From Candidatus Latescibacterota bacterium (lineage in GTDB: Bacteria; Latescibacterota; UBA2968; UBA8231), in assembly GCA_965261395.1 (NCBI GenBank), contig OZ253462.1, positions 3,072,001 to 3,136,000 on the forward strand: DNA of 64,000 nt. Reading direction: 5' to 3'. Made by a program: the position numbers and the translations under genes. Position 1 is the first letter of the stretch. Every line of letters begins with the position of its first letter. Below, in pieces: positions 32,882 through 62,898 of the stretch. Below the pieces are notes generated by a model that saw only the letters and a program-made list of their open reading frames with translations, was not told the origin of the DNA and did no database searches.

Positions 32882-32978
32882 GCCAAGCTAGTCCGATTGC
32901 ATTCTTTTAAGGTGTCGGTTACTCTAGCAAACACCTGTGTATCACACCTTTCACATCGCAAGGCTTAATGGGAAGAAT

Positions 32979-34772
32979 ATGACGAGGAAGTACGCAATAG
33001 GATGCAAATTTTATGCCAACATCTTCTTGGTCGGCGCGTTGCTGCTGGCCGCCTGCGGTCCGGAAGAACCTTCTGAACCGGCTCCGACGCCCGAGTACAC
33101 TAAAGCGCCCACCGCTGATTACGCGGTGGGGCACGGACGGCAAAAAGCCCCTGCGGTGCGCTTTGTCGATGTGACGCGAGAGGCCGGTCTCGAATTCAGG
33201 CACGAGACCGGTGCGCGCGGCGACAAGTGGATGCCGGAAACTATGGGCAGCGGCTGCGCGCTTTTTGATTACGATGGCGACGGTTGGCTGGACGTGCTCT
33301 TGGTCAACAGCGAAGGCTGGCAGGGCGAAAAGGCCCCCGGCAAGCTCTACCGCAATCTCGGCAACGGCACCTTTGCCGACGCAACGCAACGCGCTGGCCT
33401 AGACTTTTCTGTCTATGGCATGGGCGCGACGATTGCCGACTACGACGCCGATGGCGATCCGGATATTTACCTGACGACCTTGGGGCCTAATCTGCTCTTG
33501 CGCAACGACGCGGGCCGCTTTGTCGATGTGGCGCGGGAAGCGGGCGTGGCGGGCGCGGTCTGGCGCGACGATGCGGGCAATGAGAATCCCGAATGGTCCA
33601 CGGGCGCGGCCTGGGTCGATGTGGATGGCGACGGCTGGCTGGATCTGTTGGTCACCAACTACGTGCGCTGGTCGCCCAGCACTGACATATACACCACGCA
33701 AGACGGCAAGGAAAAATCCTATGCCACGCCACAGCAGTACCCCGGCTCGACGCCCCGGCTCTACCGCAATCTGGGCGCGGGCCGCTTCCGGGAGATAACC
33801 GAAGAAGCCGGCCTGCTGTTGCCCGAGGGCAAATCTATGGGCGTGGCCATGACCGACTTTGAAGACGACGGCCGCATCGACTTGGTCGTCACCAACGACA
33901 CCCAGCCCAATTTCCTGTTGCAAAACTTAGGTGGGGGTCGCTTTGCGGAGCGGGGGCTCGCCGCGGGCATTGGCTACGATGAGAGCGGGCGAGCGCGAGC
34001 GGGGATGGGCGTAGATATTGCATCGGTCGCCAACGACGGCGTGCTCTCCATCGCCATTGGCAACTTCAGTCGCGAGGCGCTCTCGCTCTACCGCCAAGCT
34101 GGCAGCGAGGTTTTCGTCGATGGCGCAGGTAGGGCTAGACTGATGCAGGCGACGCTGCGGCCGCTGACCTTTGGGCTGCGCTTTTTCGACTACGATCTCG
34201 ACGGCTATCAGGACCTGATCTTGGCCAATGGGCACATCGAGCCGGAGATCAACTCGGTGCAGAAGGAGATCGAGTACCAGCAGGCACCGCAGTTGTTTTG
34301 GAACGACGGCGACGGGCGGATGGTCGAGGTGTCAGAGCAGACCGGTGGGCTGTTCCTCAAGCCGCTGGTGGCGCGGGGATTGGCTGTCGGCGATATCGAC
34401 GCCGATGGCGACTTGGACGTATTGCTGACGACCAATGGCGGCCCGGCTTATCTATTGCGCAACGAGGGGCCGACCGGCCGTGCGGTGGCGCTCGACCTGA
34501 CGGGTAAGGCACCCAACCGAGACGCCATCGGCGCGAAGGTGACGGCGCAGGTGGGGGAACAGAAGCAGGTGTTCATGGTGCGCACGGGGTCTTCCTATCT
34601 GAGCCACAGCCCGACGACGCTAACCGTTGGCTTGGGCGCGGCTGAGCAGATCGACCGCTTGGAGATTCGCTGGCCGGATGGGACGGTAGAAACCCTCGAA
34701 CAGCTCGCGGCCGGGGCGCACTACGAAATCGCGCAGGGTGAGGGGATTGTGGGGAAGAGGGCCTTTCAATAG
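32979..34772 (+). CDS. CRTAC1/ASPIC-UnbV family FG-GAP repeat lipoprotein
   Basis: Lipobox 'LLAAC'; repeated DxDGDGxxD motifs; C-terminal 'NRDAIGAKV...GSSYLS...VGLG...IRWPDG'. Confidence 0.9.
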   Translation: MTRKYAIGCKFYANIFLVGALLLAACGPEEPSEPAPTPEYTKAPTADYAVGHGRQKAPAVRFVDVTREAGLEFRHETGARGDKWMPETMGSGCALFDYDGDGWLDVLLVNSEGWQGEKAPGKLYRNLGNGTFADATQRAGLDFSVYGMGATIADYDADGDPDIYLTTLGPNLLLRNDAGRFVDVAREAGVAGAVWRDDAGNENPEWSTGAAWVDVDGDGWLDLLVTNYVRWSPSTDIYTTQDGKEKSYATPQQYPGSTPRLYRNLGAGRFREITEEAGLLLPEGKSMGVAMTDFEDDGRIDLVVTNDTQPNFLLQNLGGGRFAERGLAAGIGYDESGRARAGMGVDIASVANDGVLSIAIGNFSREALSLYRQAGSEVFVDGAGRARLMQATLRPLTFGLRFFDYDLDGYQDLILANGHIEPEINSVQKEIEYQQAPQLFWNDGDGRMVEVSEQTGGLFLKPLVARGLAVGDIDADGDLDVLLTTNGGPAYLLRNEGPTGRAVALDLTGKAPNRDAIGAKVTAQVGEQKQVFMVRTGSSYLSHSPTTLTVGLGAAEQIDRLEIRWPDGTVETLEQLAAGAHYEIAQGEGIVGKRAFQ

Positions 34773-47166: not shown

Positions 47167-48753
47167 ATGGTACAACTGCACGATGTGAATACCACAGATA
47201 TCGGCGACGCCATTCGCTTGGGTTGCCAAGCCATGGGCCGGGCTTTCAATGCCGATGACGCCGATATACCCTACGGAGGAGCGCAGGTGCGGCCCGAAGC
47301 CTTTTTGGGCGGCAGCATGGAAGGCCATATGCCGGGTCGTCTCTTGAACGCTATGCTGGCGGCTGAGGACGCCACGGGTTTGGACTTGGACGAAGAGGAG
47401 ATCGACAAGCATGCCCGTGCGGCTTTTTTCTCGTACAGCCGGGCACCTCTGCCCTTGCAGCGCATCGGCCAGCACACCAAGGGCGAGGGCGACCCCATTG
47501 AACTGCAAGAGCACAATTTGCGCGAGGGGTTCCACGCCCTCTACGCCTTAGCTGCTTTCCGCGAGTCCGAGCGGGCTATGGAATTGGCTGCGGCTAGCAT
47601 TGAGTTGCTGTTTGATTATTGGGTGCCCAATGAGCAATGGGATCGCGTCCGCCTCAAACGCGACACGCCGGTGCGCCTCCGCGATTCCGGCGAGACGACC
47701 TTCATCCAAGGGCCGGCGCGCGCCATTGGGCCGCTGGTCAAATTGTACCAAGTGACCGGGTACCAACCGGCCTTGGATTTGGCCACTCTGCTCAAGGACA
47801 AAGCCGTGCGCGAATTCTTTCTCGACGACGGCTCCTTTGCCACCGAGCGCTTTGGTCTGCACGTGCATTCGACCACTTGTGTGATGTCGTCGCTGGCTCA
47901 GCTAGCCGAATGCACTGGGGACGCCGGGCTAATGCAGCGAGTCAAGCGGTTCTACGATGGCGGCCTGTGGGATTTGCGCGATCAGATCGGCTGGTCCATT
48001 GAGGTATCGACCCGACCCCCGCCCTGTCGTCGGGGCGAGGCCAACAATACCGGCGATATTATCGAGACCGCGCTCATCTTGGGGCGCTGGGGCCACCCCG
48101 AGTACTACGCCGATGCCGAGCGCATGTTGCGCAGCCATTTGCTGCCGTCGCAATTGCGCGATGTCTCGTTTATCGTCGAGCCAGATAATCCCGAGGGGGT
48201 TGATGGCAAGCGCGAGGTGGCGCACAGGCTGCGCGGCGGCTTTGGTTTCCCTGCCCCCCACGGACACGAGCCGCTGGGCATCTGGCAATCGAACAAGCCG
48301 CGCATTGGCTTCAATATTGACATTGTCGGCGGGTCCGTAGGCTCGTTAGCCTCGGCGTACAAGGCGGTGATGCGCCGCGATGGAGCGGGGCATTGGGTGG
48401 ATATGCTATTCGACTGCGAGACCGAGGCCCTTGAAGTGCAGTCGCCCTATACGCATCCGCGCCTAGCGGTCAAAGTCAAGCAGCCGGGAGCACTGCACGT
48501 GCGTCTGCCGCCTTGGCTCGACGGCGATTGTCTCAAAGTCGAGGGTGCTGCACATCCGATCTTGCGCGACGGCTATGCGGTGATTGAGAATCCGCCCGTG
48601 GGAAGCTGGATCAGTCTTGCGTTTGACTTGCCCGTCCACGAGACGACCCTGACGTGGCGGGACAGCGCCATCCGCGCGCGGCTGTGCGGCGACGAAGTGG
48701 TGGCGATGGATAACTTCGGTACGGATCTGACCTTTTTCCCGCCGTTTGATTGA
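47167..48753 (+). CDS. Hypothetical protein, possibly GH127-like; paralog of 43613-45172
   Basis: Shares 'DVNTTD', 'HNLREG', 'HVHS', 'GEANNTGD', 'LPSQLRD', 'VVAMD.FG.DLTFF..FD'. Confidence 0.7.
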   Translation: MVQLHDVNTTDIGDAIRLGCQAMGRAFNADDADIPYGGAQVRPEAFLGGSMEGHMPGRLLNAMLAAEDATGLDLDEEEIDKHARAAFFSYSRAPLPLQRIGQHTKGEGDPIELQEHNLREGFHALYALAAFRESERAMELAAASIELLFDYWVPNEQWDRVRLKRDTPVRLRDSGETTFIQGPARAIGPLVKLYQVTGYQPALDLATLLKDKAVREFFLDDGSFATERFGLHVHSTTCVMSSLAQLAECTGDAGLMQRVKRFYDGGLWDLRDQIGWSIEVSTRPPPCRRGEANNTGDIIETALILGRWGHPEYYADAERMLRSHLLPSQLRDVSFIVEPDNPEGVDGKREVAHRLRGGFGFPAPHGHEPLGIWQSNKPRIGFNIDIVGGSVGSLASAYKAVMRRDGAGHWVDMLFDCETEALEVQSPYTHPRLAVKVKQPGALHVRLPPWLDGDCLKVEGAAHPILRDGYAVIENPPVGSWISLAFDLPVHETTLTWRDSAIRARLCGDEVVAMDNFGTDLTFFPPFD

Positions 48754-53761: not shown

Positions 53762-55003
53762 TTATTCCACTTCCACTAACACTTGGCGTTGGGCTGGGTC
53801 AAAGGCGACTAAAGTAGCTCCGTCCTCTAACAGGAAAGTGTCGCTTTTGAAAGAGGCACGGCTCGAAGCTCGCGTCAATGGGCGGCCATCTACCCGCACT
53901 GAGCGCACCTGCCCATCTGTCAGGCGCAGGGTCAAATCAGGGGTCTGCACCGGCAGGTCGAGGCGGATGGTGTTGCCCTCTACTGAAATCTCGGCCATTG
54001 CGCGGGTGCAGGCATAGGTGGTGATCTGGCTACAGGTGCGCCATTGGGTGCGCTCTCCTCTGGGATCGCGCTCGGCGAGGCGGCTCACCACCTTCTTGAA
54101 TGCCTTAAAGCCGCGCCGGTCCTCATCGTGTAGCCCATAAAACCCCTGCCAATGGCTGATGAGCACAGCCGGCTCGCCCGCGTCAATGAGGGCCGGTAGG
54201 CGGCCGCTTTCTAGGTCGGGAGCGATGTACTTGTCGGGATCGACCTCGCCATACCCGGTCCAACTGCCAGTCCAGTCGCCGGTGGAGGCGATGATTTCGC
54301 CAGTGGCTTGGCCGGTCTGGCGATCGGGGTACCACACGGGGGTATCCACCGTGGCCTCCCTAGAGATCCGCTGAAAAAAGTAGGGCACGGGGTTGCCCGT
54401 GACTTGGCGCACGGCCTCGCCAGCACAGTGGGCGTAAAAGGGCAAGGTGCGGCCGCCGAAACCGCCCGGTGAGGTTACCCCTTGGGGCGTCAAGCCCACA
54501 GCGACTAAAATGCGGCATGCTTGGGCGATGTACTCGGTGACCAATTCTTCTTGATCTTCGGGCAGCGTGGCCCACTCGTATTGCTCCCATATTCTGGAGG
54601 GGAGCGGCTGCAAGGTTTTGGGATCTAGCACGAACGTATGGGTGAGCATCTCGGGCGTGATGTCGAAGGCAGGGACGATTACCTCGCGGCACATGGCCAG
54701 CCATTCGTCTTGCTGGGCTTTGCTGAAGAGGGGCAGCCCCTCGTCGATGCGCCCTAGAGCCGCCGGACAGGGCACCACCGAGAACTTGCCCCGGACGCCG
54801 CTTGTTAGGCACCACTCGGCAAATTCACGGGTAAAGGACGTAGGATGGGCCACCGGCACATCCTCCCAGCGCTGGGGACGGCCCTCGGCGATAGTGCGAT
54901 CGCGGAGGAAGAAATAGTTGAGGTTGACCAGCACCGTGGAATCGTCGAAGATGATGGACAAGGGCACTCGATCGAGGGCGTGACGGGCGATTTCAGCGAA
55001 CAG
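53762..55003 (-). CDS. Conserved hypothetical protein; probable CTG start
   Basis: Long ORF ('PLSIIFDDS', 'GVRGKFSVVP.PA', 'DITPEMLTH', 'GVTSPGGFG', 'SHWQG'); AAAGGAGGT SD 5 nt before an in-frame CTG. Confidence 0.75.
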   Translation of the reverse strand: MFAEIARHALDRVPLSIIFDDSTVLVNLNYFFLRDRTIAEGRPQRWEDVPVAHPTSFTREFAEWCLTSGVRGKFSVVPCPAALGRIDEGLPLFSKAQQDEWLAMCREVIVPAFDITPEMLTHTFVLDPKTLQPLPSRIWEQYEWATLPEDQEELVTEYIAQACRILVAVGLTPQGVTSPGGFGGRTLPFYAHCAGEAVRQVTGNPVPYFFQRISREATVDTPVWYPDRQTGQATGEIIASTGDWTGSWTGYGEVDPDKYIAPDLESGRLPALIDAGEPAVLISHWQGFYGLHDEDRRGFKAFKKVVSRLAERDPRGERTQWRTCSQITTYACTRAMAEISVEGNTIRLDLPVQTPDLTLRLTDGQVRSVRVDGRPLTRASSRASFKSDTFLLEDGATLVAFDPAQRQVLVEVE

Positions 55004-55172
55004 GGGACACCTCCTTTGTTGTAACAATCTGCCGTGGCTGAGCGGCTTTTGGCGTCTAATATACTATGCTCTCTTGCCGTTACAAAAACTACACCCAATG
55101 GGGCAAATCCGCCGCGCACCGGCTGGGGTTGACTCCTGATCTGCTAGGTGCGGCCTGTGGGGGATACGACCC

Positions 55173-57860
55173 GTGACTAGTCGCCCGCGCGCCGCCGTGC
55201 GCCTCGCCGGTGCGGCTCTGCTGCTCAGTGGCTTGGCCCTCAATCCGCTGGCCCCCGCGCATTTTTCTTTAGGGCATCCGCTTAGCACCGAGAGTATCAT
55301 CGCCCTCCAGATCGCCTTGATTTTTGGCGGCGGTTGGCTCGTTTGGCGATGTCCCCGGCTGCCGCTAGTTCCCATTGTACTCGTTGCCCTCGCCTTTGGC
55401 GCCCTGGCCATTCTCGGGGGATACGGTACGGTCCGCTCACTGCAAAAGGTGCAGGAACGCAACCGGCTTTTGGCGACTATTGACCGCAGCGAAGAGGTAC
55501 AGCAGCACCTGAGCGGCGAGGCCCTGCCGCTCCTCGTTTTGGGGATCTACCAAGGACAACTGCCCGCGCCGCCGGCTCGCGCGCTTTTTGCCGCCACGGT
55601 TGCGGTCGCGGATGTAGAGCAGACCGCAGAGGCGACCGAAGTTGTCCCGGCGTTGGGCATTAAGCGTCAGCACTGGCGGATTGCTTCTATCGAACAGTTC
55701 CGGGGCTCCGACCTCCAGCTATGGGGGTCGCTTTTTGCCGCGCTGCATTCCTGCGACTATGCGGCCTTCCACATTGAGACCGGGCATTTCCTCGACGCGG
55801 AGGCGACACTCTACCAAGCCCGCTTGCGCTTCAACGCTTCGGCGCAGACAAAAGACGGGGAGCGAGCGCAAATTCGGGCTTGGCTGACGCTCGACTGGCA
55901 GCGGCAGGAAGATGCCTCTTGGCGGATTCAGCGCTGGGAGACCGAATCGCTGGAGATGCTCACGCGGGCGCACGCGCTGTTTGCCGAAGTCCTCGACGGG
56001 GCGCTCCCGCGCGACGAGGACCGCACCCGGGCTAGGTTTTCGCGCCACGCCGAACTGGTGCGTCAGTCGTTTTTCGACTCCGCGTTCACCGCACCGCATC
56101 GCTATTTCACCCGCCAGGCCTTTGACCGCCATCCCGGCATCAGCGTCGTGGATATTGACGCCGATGGGTACGACGACCTGTACATTGCCGGGCGCCAAGG
56201 TAGGAACATGCTGTTGCACAATGGCGGCGACGGCACGTTCACTGAGCGCGCGGCCCAATACGGCCTCGATGTGGAGCACCACACCGCGGCTGCGCTCTTC
56301 GCCGACTTTGACAACGACGGCGACCCGGATGTCTTCCTCGGTCGCACGCTCGCGTCTAGCCTCTACTTGGTCAACGAGGACGGTCGCTTTGCCCCCCGCG
56401 ACTTAGGCGATGGCGTCTTGCCGTTCCTCGTGGCCTCGATCTCAGCGGCCGATTACGACGGCGACGGCCTGCTCGACGTGTACTTCTCCACGTATGCCGC
56501 GCGGATGTTGCTCGAAGCGGTCGCCACCGCGTCTGGCGCAAGCGCGCTGTTGGCCGACTTCCTGTCTGCGGACCACGCTCGCACGCTCTACGACCTGAGC
56601 CGCGACCGCATTGGCCACCTCATCCACGACGCGCCCGGGCCGCCCAACGTCCTACTGCGCAACCTCGGCAACGGCCGCTTTGCACCCACTGCCGCGGTGT
56701 GGCGCAATACCTTACAGGCGACTTGGGCCGACTACGACCGCGACGGCGACCCGGATCTCTACCTCGCCAACGACTTTGCCGCCAACAACTTGCTCCGCAA
56801 TGACGGCGGTGCCCTCGTCGATGTCACCGCCGCGAGCGGGGTTGCGGATCCGGGCTTTGGCATGGGTGCGAGCTGGGCCGATTACGACGGAGATGGCCGC
56901 CAAGACCTGTACGTGACCAACATGCACAGCAGCGCCGGTCGCCGCATCACGGCAGCCGCTGGGCGGGCGGGCGCGGCGTTTGCCCCTTTGGCCCGGGGGA
57001 ACTCCCTCCTGAGGAACGGCAGCAAGGGCTTCACTCGCGTTGCGGATTCGCCGGTGGAGGACGGCGGCTGGGGTTGGGGCGGCCAGTTTTTGGACTTTGA
57101 CAACGACGGCGACCTCGACATCTACGCTCTGAGTGGCTACTACACCCCGCCGTCCGCAGTCGCTCTTCCCGAAGATACCTGAAGCCTGTTTTGGCGCACG
57201 GTCGTGCGTCATGGCCGGACGGATGGGGCGTACAACGTAGGAGCGCGGCTCAACGCTGGGGCCTCACTCAGCGGAGACCAGCGCAACCGCCTCTTTCTCA
57301 ATGTAGAAGGCCGCGATTTTATTGAACTGTCGGGCTTGTCGGCGGTGGATTCGCCGGCGGATGGCCGCGCCTTCGCCACCTTGGACTTCGACCGCGACGG
57401 CCGCATTGATTTGGCCGTCGTCAATGCCAATGAGCCGCTCTGCGAGCTGTTTGCCAACCGCAGCAAGGCGGGGCACATCCTCGCGTTGCGGTTTGTGGGG
57501 GGTAATAAGCACGATGAGATCTCGCGTGAATGGAGTACACGCGATGGGTATGGCGTACAAGTGGAAGTGGATGTCGGCGGGAGGACGCTGTTGCGCGAGC
57601 ATCGGGCTGGCGAGGGCTTCTCGGCCCAGAACAGCGCGACCTTGATTGTCGGCTTAGGCGCACATCAACGAGCGGATGCCGTGCGCGTGCGCTGGCCTTC
57701 GGGCCGCACCCAGCACACAACCGACGTGGAGGCCGGTTCGCTGTTGACCGCGTACGAAAACTCTCGGCACTCGCCTACGGGGGCGGCGTTTGTAACCGCG
57801 CCATACTACGTGCCCCCAGATAGCAGCCGACCGCGGCTCCCCGCGCGCCGGCAATTTTAA
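55173..57860 (+). CDS. Membrane-anchored CRTAC1/ASPIC-UnbV FG-GAP protein with an in-frame TGA at 57180-57182 (candidate selenocysteine; 895 aa if read through)
   Basis: ORFs 55173-57182 and 57204-57860 share one frame separated only by TGA plus 7 sense codons (EDT*SLFWRTVVRH); FG-GAP repeats continue after the TGA (DFDRDGRID), followed by the UnbV domain ('GYGVQV...GEGFSAQNS..GLG...VRWPSG'). Confidence 0.75.
57184..57215 (+). promoter_or_regulatory. Candidate bacterial SECIS element
   Basis: Stem UGGCGCAC/GUGCGUCA (57192-57199 with 57204-57211), apical loop GGUC 17 nt after the UGA, lower stem GCC/GGC. Confidence 0.62.
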
Positions 57861-57884: not shown

Positions 57885-58610
57885 ATGGTTGCTAATGTTG
57901 CTCATCGGGGTGCGTCGGGAAACTATCCCGAAAATACGTTGATCGCCTTTCAGAAGGCGTTAGAAATTGGCGTTGATGAGATTGAGCTAGATCTCCACAT
58001 GACAAAGGATGACCATCTAATTGTCATGCACGACTCAACCGTAGACCGAACGACAGATGGCACGGGCGCGATTGCAAAACTCACACTAACTGAGATCAAA
58101 GCCCTTGACGCCGGAGGAGTGTTTGGTGAACAGTTTCGGGGTGAGCGTGTGCCAACATGGGAGGAAGCATTAGACCTCGTACAAGGGAAGGTTAGACTCA
58201 ATGTCCACCTCAAAGAAGGGGGCAATCCAGACGGTCGCTATGAACGCAAGGTTGCACAGGCATTGCGCGAGTTTCAGATGGTAGAGGCTTCTATTTTGGC
58301 ATGCAGCGATAAAAGCGTTGGGATTTTTGCCGAGATTGACTCGCGGATTGAGTGCCGGATTTTTCGCGCGAATCGCACACCAGAGGAATATATCCGAAAA
58401 TCGGCAGAGATGGAGCTGCGGACGATGCAGCCGGGACGGGACATCACGACTCGGGAGTTTGTCCAAAAGGCACATGCGGCAGGACGAGTTGTGCACGTCT
58501 TCTATGCGGATACCCCTGAAGATATGCGAGCTTACATCGAGATCGGCGTTGATGGGATTTTGACAAACTATCCGGAACGACTGCAAGCGATCCTCACAGA
58601 AATTGAGTAG
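57885..58610 (+). CDS. Glycerophosphodiester phosphodiesterase family protein
   Basis: 'AHRGASG.YPENT..AF', 'ELDLH.TKD..LIVMHD', 'GVDGILTNYP'. Confidence 0.92.
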   Translation: MVANVAHRGASGNYPENTLIAFQKALEIGVDEIELDLHMTKDDHLIVMHDSTVDRTTDGTGAIAKLTLTEIKALDAGGVFGEQFRGERVPTWEEALDLVQGKVRLNVHLKEGGNPDGRYERKVAQALREFQMVEASILACSDKSVGIFAEIDSRIECRIFRANRTPEEYIRKSAEMELRTMQPGRDITTREFVQKAHAAGRVVHVFYADTPEDMRAYIEIGVDGILTNYPERLQAILTEIE

Positions 58611-61344: not shown

Positions 61345-62898
61345 ATGCAGCCGATAGATATTGGATCGAGCAAGCAGCTTTTCGTCGACGATCGCTTCAT
61401 CGCCACTGGCAACGGAGTGGAGCTCGTGATGAATCCACCCTACCAGGCCACGGAGCCGGTGGTGACCGTTGGCGCCCCTTGGGAAGACCCGTCCAACACG
61501 AGCTTTGGCATTTACAGCAGCGTGTTGCGGGAAGATGACGGTCGCATCCGGCTGTGGTATCACGTGCGCAGGGCAAAGGAGGAATCCGAGCTCAGCCTCG
61601 ACCAGGCCTACGTCGGCTATGCCGAATCGACGGACGGCATCCACTTCGACAAGCCGGAGCTGAACCTAATCGACGAGGGCGGGTCGACCCTCAACAACGT
61701 CGTCATCCCGAGCAAGCTCGGTGGCAGCTCGGTCTGGATCGACCCGCATGCCCCGCCCGAGGAGCGCTACAAGAACCAGTCGAAGGTCTACAATCCCAAT
61801 GTGGCGATGCAGTTCCACATGCACAGCTCGCCGGACGGCATCCACTGGACCTTCCTTCGTCGCATACAGCTTGAACAGCGCGGCGGCTGGGATACGCAGA
61901 GCATTATTTTCTGGGATCCGGCAATCGGGCGGTACGTCCTCTACACCCGCCGCTGGGTCGCAAAACGCCACACCACCGCCCAAGGAAATGAGAACTTCCG
62001 GACGGTCAGAAGGCTCGAGTCCGACGATCTCATCAACTGGGACAACCAGAAGACGGTCATGTCCCCGGACGAGGTAGACTTGGCGACATACGAGACCGGC
62101 GCGCCGTTGGATCCCACCGCGCCGGAAAAACCCTACGGCAGGGTGCCAATGGACTATTACGGCGCAGCCGTGTTCAAGTATCCGGACCCGCACGGCGTGT
62201 ACGTCATGCTCGCCAACGCCAATTGGTACTGGTTCAACCGCGAGCCGGTGGTGACCATGGTCCGCGACGACCTGGATGTCGTGCGCACCGAGACGCAGCA
62301 GATCTACGGGCCCAGCCGCTTCGACGTGCGCCTGTCGGTGAGTCGCGACGGAGTGGACTTCCAGCGCTGTGGCGGACGCCGGCCCTTCCTGAGCCCGGGG
62401 CCCGAAGGCAGTTTCTCCTCACGCATGATCTGGGCAATGCCGCATCCGGTCCGGATGGGTGACGAAATCTGGATCTACTACAGCGGCACCAACAGGGACC
62501 ACGACGGCCTCCTCGACCCGGCGGGCAAGGGCCACCTTTCCGGCATCGGTCGCGCGATTCTTCGGTTGGACGGGTTCGTATCGGCGGATGCGGGCTACGG
62601 CGGCGGCGAAATCGTCACGCCGATTATCCGCTTCGAGGGCGAGCGTTTGGAGCTGAACCTCGACACCGGGGGCGGCGGCGCGGTTCGCGTGGAGCTTCAG
62701 GATGCGTACGGCCGACCGGTCAGCGACTACACAGAGCGCGATGCGTCCTACATCTGCGGCAATTCGGTGCGCATGCCGGTCCGCTGGGGGAAGAGCTGGG
62801 ATGTCAGCTCATTATCCGGGAAACCGATCCGGATCCGTTTTGTCATGCGCGACTGCAAGCTGTACGCGTTTCAGTTCGTCGACTCGCCGAGCTCGTAA
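61345..62898 (+). CDS. Hypothetical glycoside-hydrolase-like beta-propeller protein; paralog of 35662-37038
   Basis: 'QLFVDDRFI', 'YAESTDGIHFDKPEL', 'SPDGIHW', 'SRDGVDF', 'LRLDGFVS', 'LYAFQF'. Confidence 0.75.
   Translation: MQPIDIGSSKQLFVDDRFIATGNGVELVMNPPYQATEPVVTVGAPWEDPSNTSFGIYSSVLREDDGRIRLWYHVRRAKEESELSLDQAYVGYAESTDGIHFDKPELNLIDEGGSTLNNVVIPSKLGGSSVWIDPHAPPEERYKNQSKVYNPNVAMQFHMHSSPDGIHWTFLRRIQLEQRGGWDTQSIIFWDPAIGRYVLYTRRWVAKRHTTAQGNENFRTVRRLESDDLINWDNQKTVMSPDEVDLATYETGAPLDPTAPEKPYGRVPMDYYGAAVFKYPDPHGVYVMLANANWYWFNREPVVTMVRDDLDVVRTETQQIYGPSRFDVRLSVSRDGVDFQRCGGRRPFLSPGPEGSFSSRMIWAMPHPVRMGDEIWIYYSGTNRDHDGLLDPAGKGHLSGIGRAILRLDGFVSADAGYGGGEIVTPIIRFEGERLELNLDTGGGGAVRVELQDAYGRPVSDYTERDASYICGNSVRMPVRWGKSWDVSSLSGKPIRIRFVMRDCKLYAFQFVDSPSS

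Follow-up and report, generated by a model that had tools for sequence, protein, structure and literature searches.

A widely conserved CRTAC1-like propeller protein of bacteria, annotated as two genes, is a probable selenoprotein

Does a single in-frame TGA end a CRTAC1/ASPIC-UnbV gene of an uncultured bacterium, or does it encode selenocysteine (Sec)? This question is raised by positions 55173-57860 (+) of a 64,000-nucleotide stretch of Candidatus Latescibacterota DNA (hereafter the window; C1:3072001-3136000 of a 6.55-Mb single-contig genome). Two open reading frames (ORFs), 55173-57182 with 669 amino acids and 57204-57860 with 218, lie there in the same frame, with seven sense codons between the TGA at 57180-57182 and the second ORF. 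An earlier note, made from the letters alone, had joined the two into one selenoprotein gene, and a frame check bears out that this TGA is the sole break between them. Based upon comparative sequence evidence, we consider it very likely that the UGA is a genuine Sec codon, and we have high confidence that the product is a genuine, widely conserved and uncatalogued selenoprotein, the gene of which has been wrongly annotated as two. As an explanation of the locus as a whole, one gene for a membrane-anchored extracytoplasmic CRTAC1-like selenoprotein with a redox Sec is strongly favored. The features assigned to it are as follows.

55173..57860, +: probable single recoded coding sequence of 895 residues plus a TAA stop (57858-57860); one frame, one domain architecture and orthologs with the same single in-frame TGA; two genes in databases
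55194..55436, +: putative N-terminal membrane anchor of three hydrophobic segments (approximately residues 8-30, 39-60 and 60-88), from a hydropathy scan
55437..56129, +: N-terminal domain without a known fold (approximately residues 89-319), conserved among relatives of the TGA type
56130..57512, +: FG-GAP beta-propeller that holds the Sec insert and has calcium-loop motifs of the form Dx[DN]xDG; Pfam FG-GAP_3 and FG-GAP, AlphaFold2 model, best solved match murine CRTAC1 (9etn)
57180..57182, +: UGA very probably read as selenocysteine (residue 670); column conservation, and a tRNA-Sec as the only tRNA with a UCA anticodon
57184..57215, +: predicted selenocysteine insertion sequence (SECIS) element; upper stem 57192-57199/57204-57211, GGUC loop 57200-57203, possible lower stem 57184-57186/57213-57215
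57441..57443, +: Cys757 (TGC) in the motif NANEPLC, in the loop that follows strand 2 of the next blade; a candidate for the cysteine that resolves Sec670, from lineage-wide conservation and a predicted proximity to Sec
57546..57749, +: UnbV_ASPIC domain (residues 792-859); Pfam PF07593, E 2.7e-16, all-beta in the model

The recoded gene and its hairpin

Reading through the TGA yields a protein of 895 residues in which the recoded residue is number 670 (ALPEDT-U-SLFWRTVVRHG). Pfam matches to this protein, all above cut-off, comprise FG-GAP_3 (PF13517) in five stretches, FG-GAP (PF01839) and UnbV_ASPIC (PF07593), while residues 1-309 matched no Pfam family. Because the UnbV domain and the last blades of the propeller are encoded 3' of the TGA, and are contiguous within the single ORF of a paralog at 32937-34772, the TGA interrupts one domain architecture; the earlier note had likewise placed the break inside the propeller, and the Pfam layout agrees. 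Since the N-terminus is positive and the number of hydrophobic segments is odd, the membrane anchor would be expected to put the remainder of the protein outside the cytoplasm. The N-termini of relatives resemble signal peptides or those of lipoproteins. A scan of the read-through protein against NCBIfam recovered no selenoprotein model, only a sub-threshold match to VpsF within the membrane anchor (16 bits against a cut-off of 150).

Immediately downstream of the TGA lies a hairpin, every element of which was found where the earlier note had located it. Its eight-base-pair upper stem, TGGCGCAC with GTGCGTCA, includes one G-U pair and is capped by a GGTC loop that begins 18 nucleotides past the TGA, and a lower stem of three base pairs (GCC/GGC) is possible. 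The 3' arm begins with the GTG at 57204, at which gene callers start the second ORF; as had been claimed, this GTG is base-paired and no Shine-Dalgarno sequence is evident upstream of it. The fdhF SECIS of Escherichia coli has a GGUC-containing apical loop at nearly the same spacing from its UGA, and the rules of bSECISearch call for a G within the first two loop positions at a distance of 16-37 nucleotides from the UGA. The window gene resembles fdhF in its in-frame UGA, in a hairpin directly 3' of this codon inside the ORF and in the position of the GGUC apical loop, although its product is unrelated to formate dehydrogenase and its stem has a different sequence, with two registers among relatives. 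A search of Rfam matched no bacterial SECIS family and returned only sub-threshold eukaryotic miRNA and snoRNA matches (11-16 bits against gathering thresholds of 44-94), a result that is uninformative either way.

Conservation of the codon, the hairpin and the selenium machinery

A six-frame search of 41 related genomes with the read-through protein found orthologs (73-94% identity) with an in-frame TGA in 20 further genomes of the genus, and one more on a fragmented contig. Homologs of 39-42% identity, likewise with a TGA, came from four members of the genus and from two genomes outside the family. In all 25 loci of these relatives (39-94% identity) the TGA falls in one and the same alignment column, a count that leaves out L066, whose genome is fragmented and which failed the open-frame filter. 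An alignment of seven of these sequences (A1), in which the Sec column and the flanking D, W and V are invariant, was used to scan a GTDB-based collection with one genome per species. From over 600 matching stretches, 555 relatives could be confirmed, of which the top 80 were retained; TGA is present at the Sec column in 77 of these 80, and the other three have GAA, AAC and GCC (Glu, Asn and Ala). The titles of the 80 loci name at least seven phyla (Latescibacterota, Verrucomicrobiota, Planctomycetota, Acidobacteriota, Gemmatimonadetes, Myxococcota and Gammaproteobacteria), with a few labels being doubtful. In total, 102 of the 105 loci examined carry TGA at this column, well beyond what chance would give, and the codon is thus conserved across homologs rather than confined to one strain, a point that the earlier note had left to be checked. 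The Sec-site consensus is D-L-U-S-F-F-W-R-Q-V-V, and in the window's lineage it is D-T-U-S-L-F-W-R-T-V-V.

Three records that carry the gene are titled Akkermansia muciniphila (L084, approximately 7.3 Mb), Rickettsiales (L114) and Flavobacteriaceae (L133, a 1.7-Mb metagenome-assembled genome (MAG) with no selA match). Because the gene is typical of Acidobacteriota and of Planctomycetota-Verrucomicrobiota-Chlamydiota (PVC) lineages, there is reason to doubt how these records were labeled or binned.

For the hairpin, 87 distinct sequences of 42 nucleotides, each starting at the TGA, were aligned gap-free. All 87 can fold the hairpin at the same place, most of them in one of two registers with a common loop start at column 21.

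Register one (37 sequences, including the window's): stem columns 13-20/25-32, loop GGUC; 87.8% of cells paired, 15-63% with the partner slid; three pairs with double-sided changes
Register two (44 sequences): stem columns 15-20/26-31, loop GGUCG; 97.0% of cells paired, 14-69% with the partner slid; three pairs with double-sided changes, in 16 cells

These counts leave out L069, L070, L114, L133, L134 and L139, in which the hairpin is still formed but in other registers. The observed covariation score was reached by none of 500 shuffles in either register, and the covarying hairpin anticipated by the earlier note is present, being conserved as a structure with compensatory stem changes in both registers. 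GGTC stands at columns 21-24 in 68 of the 87 sequences, and a G at column 21 or 22, corresponding to loop position 1 or 2, is found in all 87. Column 27, the third position of a Val codon, has an entropy of 0.31 compared to 1.6-2.0 at third positions further downstream, and by this sequence measure synonymous sites within the hairpin are constrained. Amino-acid changes, too, follow the pairing, in that the third base of an Arg codon pairs with the first base of a Ser, Pro or Arg codon four codons on. The three sense-codon loci have no GGUC loop, although one of them (L085) keeps the stem with a CAUG loop.

The Sec system that the earlier note had proposed to look for (selA, selB, selC and selD) is accounted for in the host genome. 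The selB, selA and selD genes scored 345.8, 562.8 and 374.9 bits, respectively, all above NCBIfam curated cut-offs, and ARAGORN reported a tRNA-Trp (CCA) and a tRNA-Sec, the latter with the sole UCA anticodon of the genome. The host selD (C1:167966, locus L013 position 1531) carries an in-frame TGA of its own (ACGG-U-ASKL), and a six-base-pair hairpin, CUGGCA-GGUC-UGCCAG, starts 36 nucleotides past it, farther downstream than in the CRTAC1-like gene. A loop of the GGUC type thus serves a textbook selenoprotein gene of the same organism. Among genomes of other lineages that carry the TGA form, selA was found at E <= 1e-50 in 45 of 50 (43 above cut-off and two as partial matches at contig ends), compared to 1 of 14 control genomes. 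It is present in 40 of the 41 related genomes, so that this class provides no negative set for contrast. The genomes of all three sense-codon loci also have selA, and the loss of Sec from these copies is thus not due to loss of the machinery. The recoding mechanism is the standard bacterial one, wherein the UGA would be decoded by the host SelA/SelB/SelD/tRNA-Sec system under the direction of the GGUC-capped hairpin at 57192-57211.

A collection of 5.8 billion proteins was searched with residues 620-740, giving 181 matches, 120 of them listed. At least 85 of the 120 listed entries are proteins of 600-730 residues that end in EDT, EDS or DL, exactly before the TGA, and where such truncated entries are named they are called 'VCBS repeat-containing protein'. 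The systematic mis-annotation as two genes that had been predicted is evident here, and a large, phylogenetically wide family is thus cut at its probable Sec codon in public databases. This split leads to errors in domain architecture, in the number of proteins and in the size of the selenoproteome for Latescibacterota, Verrucomicrobiota, Planctomycetota, Acidobacteriota and others.

Full-length relatives with a sense codon at the Sec column show what else is accepted there. In the 11 that align with the insert, the residue is Glu in six (P0081, P0090, P0112, P0088, P0094 and P0067), Asp in two (P0115 and P0118) and Cys in three (P0092, P0111 and P0119); Trp or Arg occurs in none of the sense-codon relatives examined. 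Hence, as far as this alignment reaches, the classical Sec/Cys pair that the earlier note had suggested looking for exists, but Cys is in the minority and Glu/Asp is commoner. The whole insert is missing from the canonical CRTAC1-like proteins P0068, P0075, P0079 and P0120 as well as from the window paralog. One further ortholog, P0064 (579 amino acids), diverges from the other family members a few residues ahead of the Sec column, seemingly in another frame, which is probably due to a frameshift or assembly error in the record.

The earlier note had also held that CRTAC1/UnbV proteins are not among the standard selenoprotein families, and the literature is consistent with this. A 2026 review lists 119 selenoprotein families and subfamilies, including the hypothetical proteins GOS_B (NF041374) and GOS_C (NF045500), and the whole of this table has no FG-GAP, UnbV or CRTAC1 entry (PMC13188914, Table 1). 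Literature searches pairing selenoprotein or selenocysteine with FG-GAP, UnbV, ASPIC, CRTAC1 or VCBS, or looking for a crystal structure of the CRTAC1 beta-propeller, found nothing relevant (for ASPIC, among the best 10 of 22 records). The words propeller, FG-GAP, integrin, cartilage and repeat are absent from the main texts, as distinct from the supplementary family lists, of deep-Sep (PMC12013277) and BSepDB (PMC13326102), and ASPIC and FG-GAP are absent from the main text, as distinct from the supplement, of PMC4807772. The family would break three usual patterns of Sec: the residue is not in a CxxU or UxxC motif, it is not in a thioredoxin fold, and it is replaced by Glu/Asp more often than by Cys.

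The selenocysteine site, its possible chemistry and the alternatives

We know of no biochemical function for any CRTAC1/UnbV member. An AlphaFold2 model of residues 300-895, built from a 22-sequence alignment, has a mean predicted local distance difference test (pLDDT) score of 87.5 and a predicted template-modeling (pTM) score of 0.91. The nearest solved structure is murine CRTAC1 (9etn), with a family profile E of 2.3e-38, Foldseek template-modeling (TM) scores of 0.64/0.69 and 18% identity. In model numbering, Sec (residue 371) opens a helix (371-379) within an insert between strand 350-355, which comes after a DxDxDG loop, and strand 407-412. Propellers of the integrin type have their strand 2-3 loops on the ligand-binding face. 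The model would accordingly be compatible with Sec670 lying in an insert of approximately 50 residues, in the strand 2-3 loop of the penultimate blade, on the face that binds ligands in such propellers. Of the description given in the earlier note, the 895 amino acids, the membrane anchor and the propeller stand, as does the position of Sec outside any CxxU motif (there is no CxxU or UxxC around Sec in the Latescibacterota lineage), whereas the Sec that it had placed on a loop starts a short helix in the model. With the CRTAC1/ASPIC-UnbV family at large (9etn, bacterial proteins named 'CRTAC1 family' or 'VCBS repeat-containing', and UnbV of enediyne clusters), the window protein shares an FG-GAP propeller followed by UnbV_ASPIC. 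It differs by the Sec insert, the three-segment anchor and an extra N-terminal domain without a Pfam match.

Most TGA-type relatives outside the window's lineage are larger, with 960-1400 residues, and continue into a Redoxin/AhpC-TSA thioredoxin-like domain, often with TPR repeats after it. These CRTAC1-Redoxin(-TPR) fusions (L067, L068 and L080-L154, from Verrucomicrobiota, Planctomycetota, Acidobacteriota and others) share with the window protein the Sec column, the motif D-x-U-[SA]-x-x-W, the hairpin position and the propeller-UnbV core. A CxxC motif lies 225-320 residues past Sec in 68 of the 69 TGA-type proteins that have at least 330 residues after Sec, the exception being L131, whereas sense-codon forms with the same extension keep it in only 4 of 8 (L085 with Glu, L150 with Ala, and P0081 and P0090 with Glu, as opposed to L107 with Asn, P0112 with Glu, and P0115 and P0118 with Asp); these counts are drawn from related sequences and are uncorrected for kinship. 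The pattern suggests that Sec and CxxC work together. The thioredoxin-fold selenoprotein families of the 2026 review are similar to the present family, in that both are likely to carry out extracytoplasmic thiol/selenol redox reactions and the relatives here have a domain of the TlpA/Redoxin type. However, the families in that review have Sec in a UxxC motif (PMC13188914), whereas here the thioredoxin-like domain keeps CxxC and Sec is on the propeller.

The window protein and its orthologs, in contrast to the fusions, end after UnbV; the window protein stops 225 residues past Sec and has no thioredoxin-type Pfam match. Every member of this thioredoxin-less group of Latescibacterota orthologs has a Cys in the motif NANEP[LF]C (Cys757 of the window protein), which falls in the equivalent loop of the next blade, whereas in the nearest relatives with a thioredoxin-like domain this position is taken by F, L, S, T or V. 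The only other thioredoxin-less lineage (L069 and L070) has U-x-C. Because CxxC tracks the Sec forms and thioredoxin-less lineages gain a Cys, thiol/selenol exchange is favored.

It is thus possible to outline a mechanism in which Sec670 would act as a redox-active nucleophile. A periplasmic oxidant (peroxide, disulfide/polysulfide or similar) would oxidize Sec670, and a selenenylsulfide would form. In most relatives this could be resolved by the fused TlpA/Redoxin-like CxxC domain, with electrons supplied in cis, while in the thioredoxin-less lineage Cys757 in the neighboring blade loop may resolve it first, followed by a thiol reductant in trans. In catalysis of the glutathione-peroxidase type, Sec is oxidized by the substrate and recycled via a resolving thiol or thioredoxin. 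The likeness to glutathione peroxidase is in this proposed principle only, with a lone Sec outside any CxxU, a Cys to resolve it and a thioredoxin-like domain to recycle it, and Pfam gives no relation of sequence or fold to the window protein. We judge from the sequence comparisons that a redox role for Sec is somewhat better than an even bet, but the specific relay through Cys757 is tentative. Equally speculative is the broader proposal that the Sec insert makes the CRTAC1/UnbV propeller a new class of extracytoplasmic selenoenzyme, with a selenol on the ligand face that is cycled via a TlpA-like domain or Cys757. If true, the CRTAC1/ASPIC/UnbV superfamily would thereby gain its first catalytic function, and the protein would be the first selenoprotein with Sec on a propeller instead of a thioredoxin-like or metal-cofactor site; the Glu/Asp forms would then represent a series of natural paralogs without redox activity. 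The coupling of a conserved Sec to a CxxC domain would give a concrete handle on CRTAC1/UnbV function, for which the thioredoxin-less Cys757 form is a compact construct.

Several observations weigh against this account in whole or in part. The organism is an uncultured MAG, and the Sec assignment rests on comparative evidence. An in-frame GTG lies within the 3' arm of nearly all hairpins, and termination followed by re-initiation is thus compatible with the sequence. The expectation that TGA-type homologs keep to Sec-using genomes holds for most carriers, but no selA match was found in 5 of the 50 TGA-bearing MAGs or in the 1.7-Mb L133 MAG, the completeness of these MAGs being uncertain. The preponderance of Glu/Asp over Cys at the column is unusual for a redox Sec and would fit a metal ligand or an acid/base residue equally well. 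CxxC is kept in two Glu forms and the Ala form, and the association between Sec and CxxC is not phylogenetically corrected. The predicted proximity of Sec670 and Cys757 and the placement of Sec on the top face derive from strand order plus the topology of integrin-type propellers. Finally, there is no redox gene next to 55173-57860.

Were the UGA to terminate translation, with re-initiation at the GTG in the hairpin, two polypeptides would have to assemble into one propeller. The GTG does occupy columns 25-27 in most sequences and gene callers do predict two ORFs, but the GTG is paired and has no evident Shine-Dalgarno sequence, and the codons from TGA to GTG vary with the third-position bias typical of coding sequence (entropy, columns 4-12). 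Re-initiation would also leave unexplained the GGUC loop with its compensatory stem changes, the occurrence of selA in so many carrier genomes (45/50) and the single-chain relatives in which the column holds Cys, Glu or Asp, and we consider it very improbable. A frame that stays open across the TGA would likewise be expected if the UGA were read as Trp, Cys or Arg without selenium, through near-cognate decoding or a reassigned code. This is scarcely credible given that UCA is the anticodon of tRNA-Sec alone and tRNA-Trp has CCA, that ordinary ORFs of relatives stop at TGA (as in L070), that each gene has a single TGA, at one column and with a SECIS-type hairpin, and that neither Trp nor Arg takes its place among the sense-codon relatives. 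In a single genome, the lone in-frame stop would resemble a fresh nonsense mutation. Nevertheless, a recent pseudogene or an assembly error has a negligible probability and can be ruled out, since 102 of 105 loci, from several phyla, share this codon, and conservation of the protein extends to both sides of it.

A different kind of alternative accepts the Sec residue and questions its chemistry. The earlier note had left the choice between redox and metal chemistry open, and the fused thioredoxin-like domains favor redox. If Sec670 instead bound a metal or belonged to a site that handles metals or metalloids, a soft metal might be bound or transformed, and the Glu, Asp and Cys substitutes would suit other metals. 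Metals are commonly bound by these three residues, the FG-GAP propeller that serves as scaffold binds calcium, and no CxxU or UxxC surrounds Sec in the window's lineage. Moreover, several catalogued bacterial selenoproteins bind metals (PMC13188914, Table 1). However, the retention of the fused CxxC in 68 of 69 Sec forms and its loss from 4 of 8 non-Sec forms point to thiol/selenol exchange, as does the gain of a nearby Cys in thioredoxin-less lineages. There is also no conserved His/Cys cluster around the site, and the invariant columns of the 22-sequence alignment are mostly D, G, N and W. A metal role is thus unlikely in our view, and a redox role for Sec670 remains preferred.

Neighboring and related genes

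Gene neighborhoods offer no operon clue: among 410 flanking ORFs that were clustered from the loci, no neighbor is common to more than nine loci. In the window, the neighbors include a GDPD phosphodiesterase, beta-lactamase-fold proteins and a 2-hydroxyacid dehydrogenase, among others. The GDPD gene (57885-58610, +) starts 25 nucleotides past the selenoprotein stop with a strong AGGAGG-type ribosome-binding site and may be co-transcribed with the selenoprotein gene, although this pairing is not conserved in other loci. Three other ORFs of 420-528 amino acids in the window, at 53762-55027 (-), 47167-48753 (+) and 61345-62898 (+), match no Pfam family at E <= 1e-5. Elsewhere in the host genome, ARAGORN called a 96-nucleotide tRNA-Gly with the anticodon ACC (C1:6547634-6547729), whose length and anticodon are unusual for a bacterial tRNA-Gly; the call may be spurious or may mark an aberrant tRNA-like element.

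A second TGA-type paralog, of 938-980 amino acids and with a fused Redoxin domain (CGPC or CAPC), occurs in some congeneric species, as is evident for L067 and L068 in G017 and G015, and also in G014 and G016. This second paralog is not in the window's genome, where a motif scan gave no second Sec-type copy besides the gene at 55173-57860. The paralog at 32937-34772 (+), located 20 kb upstream, is a canonical CRTAC1-like protein of 611 amino acids with FG-GAP and UnbV domains and without the Sec insert. A search of the host genome for FG-GAP/CRTAC1-like proteins yielded 94 first-look candidates and 200 matches, indicating that the family is heavily expanded in this organism, with some ninety FG-GAP loci.

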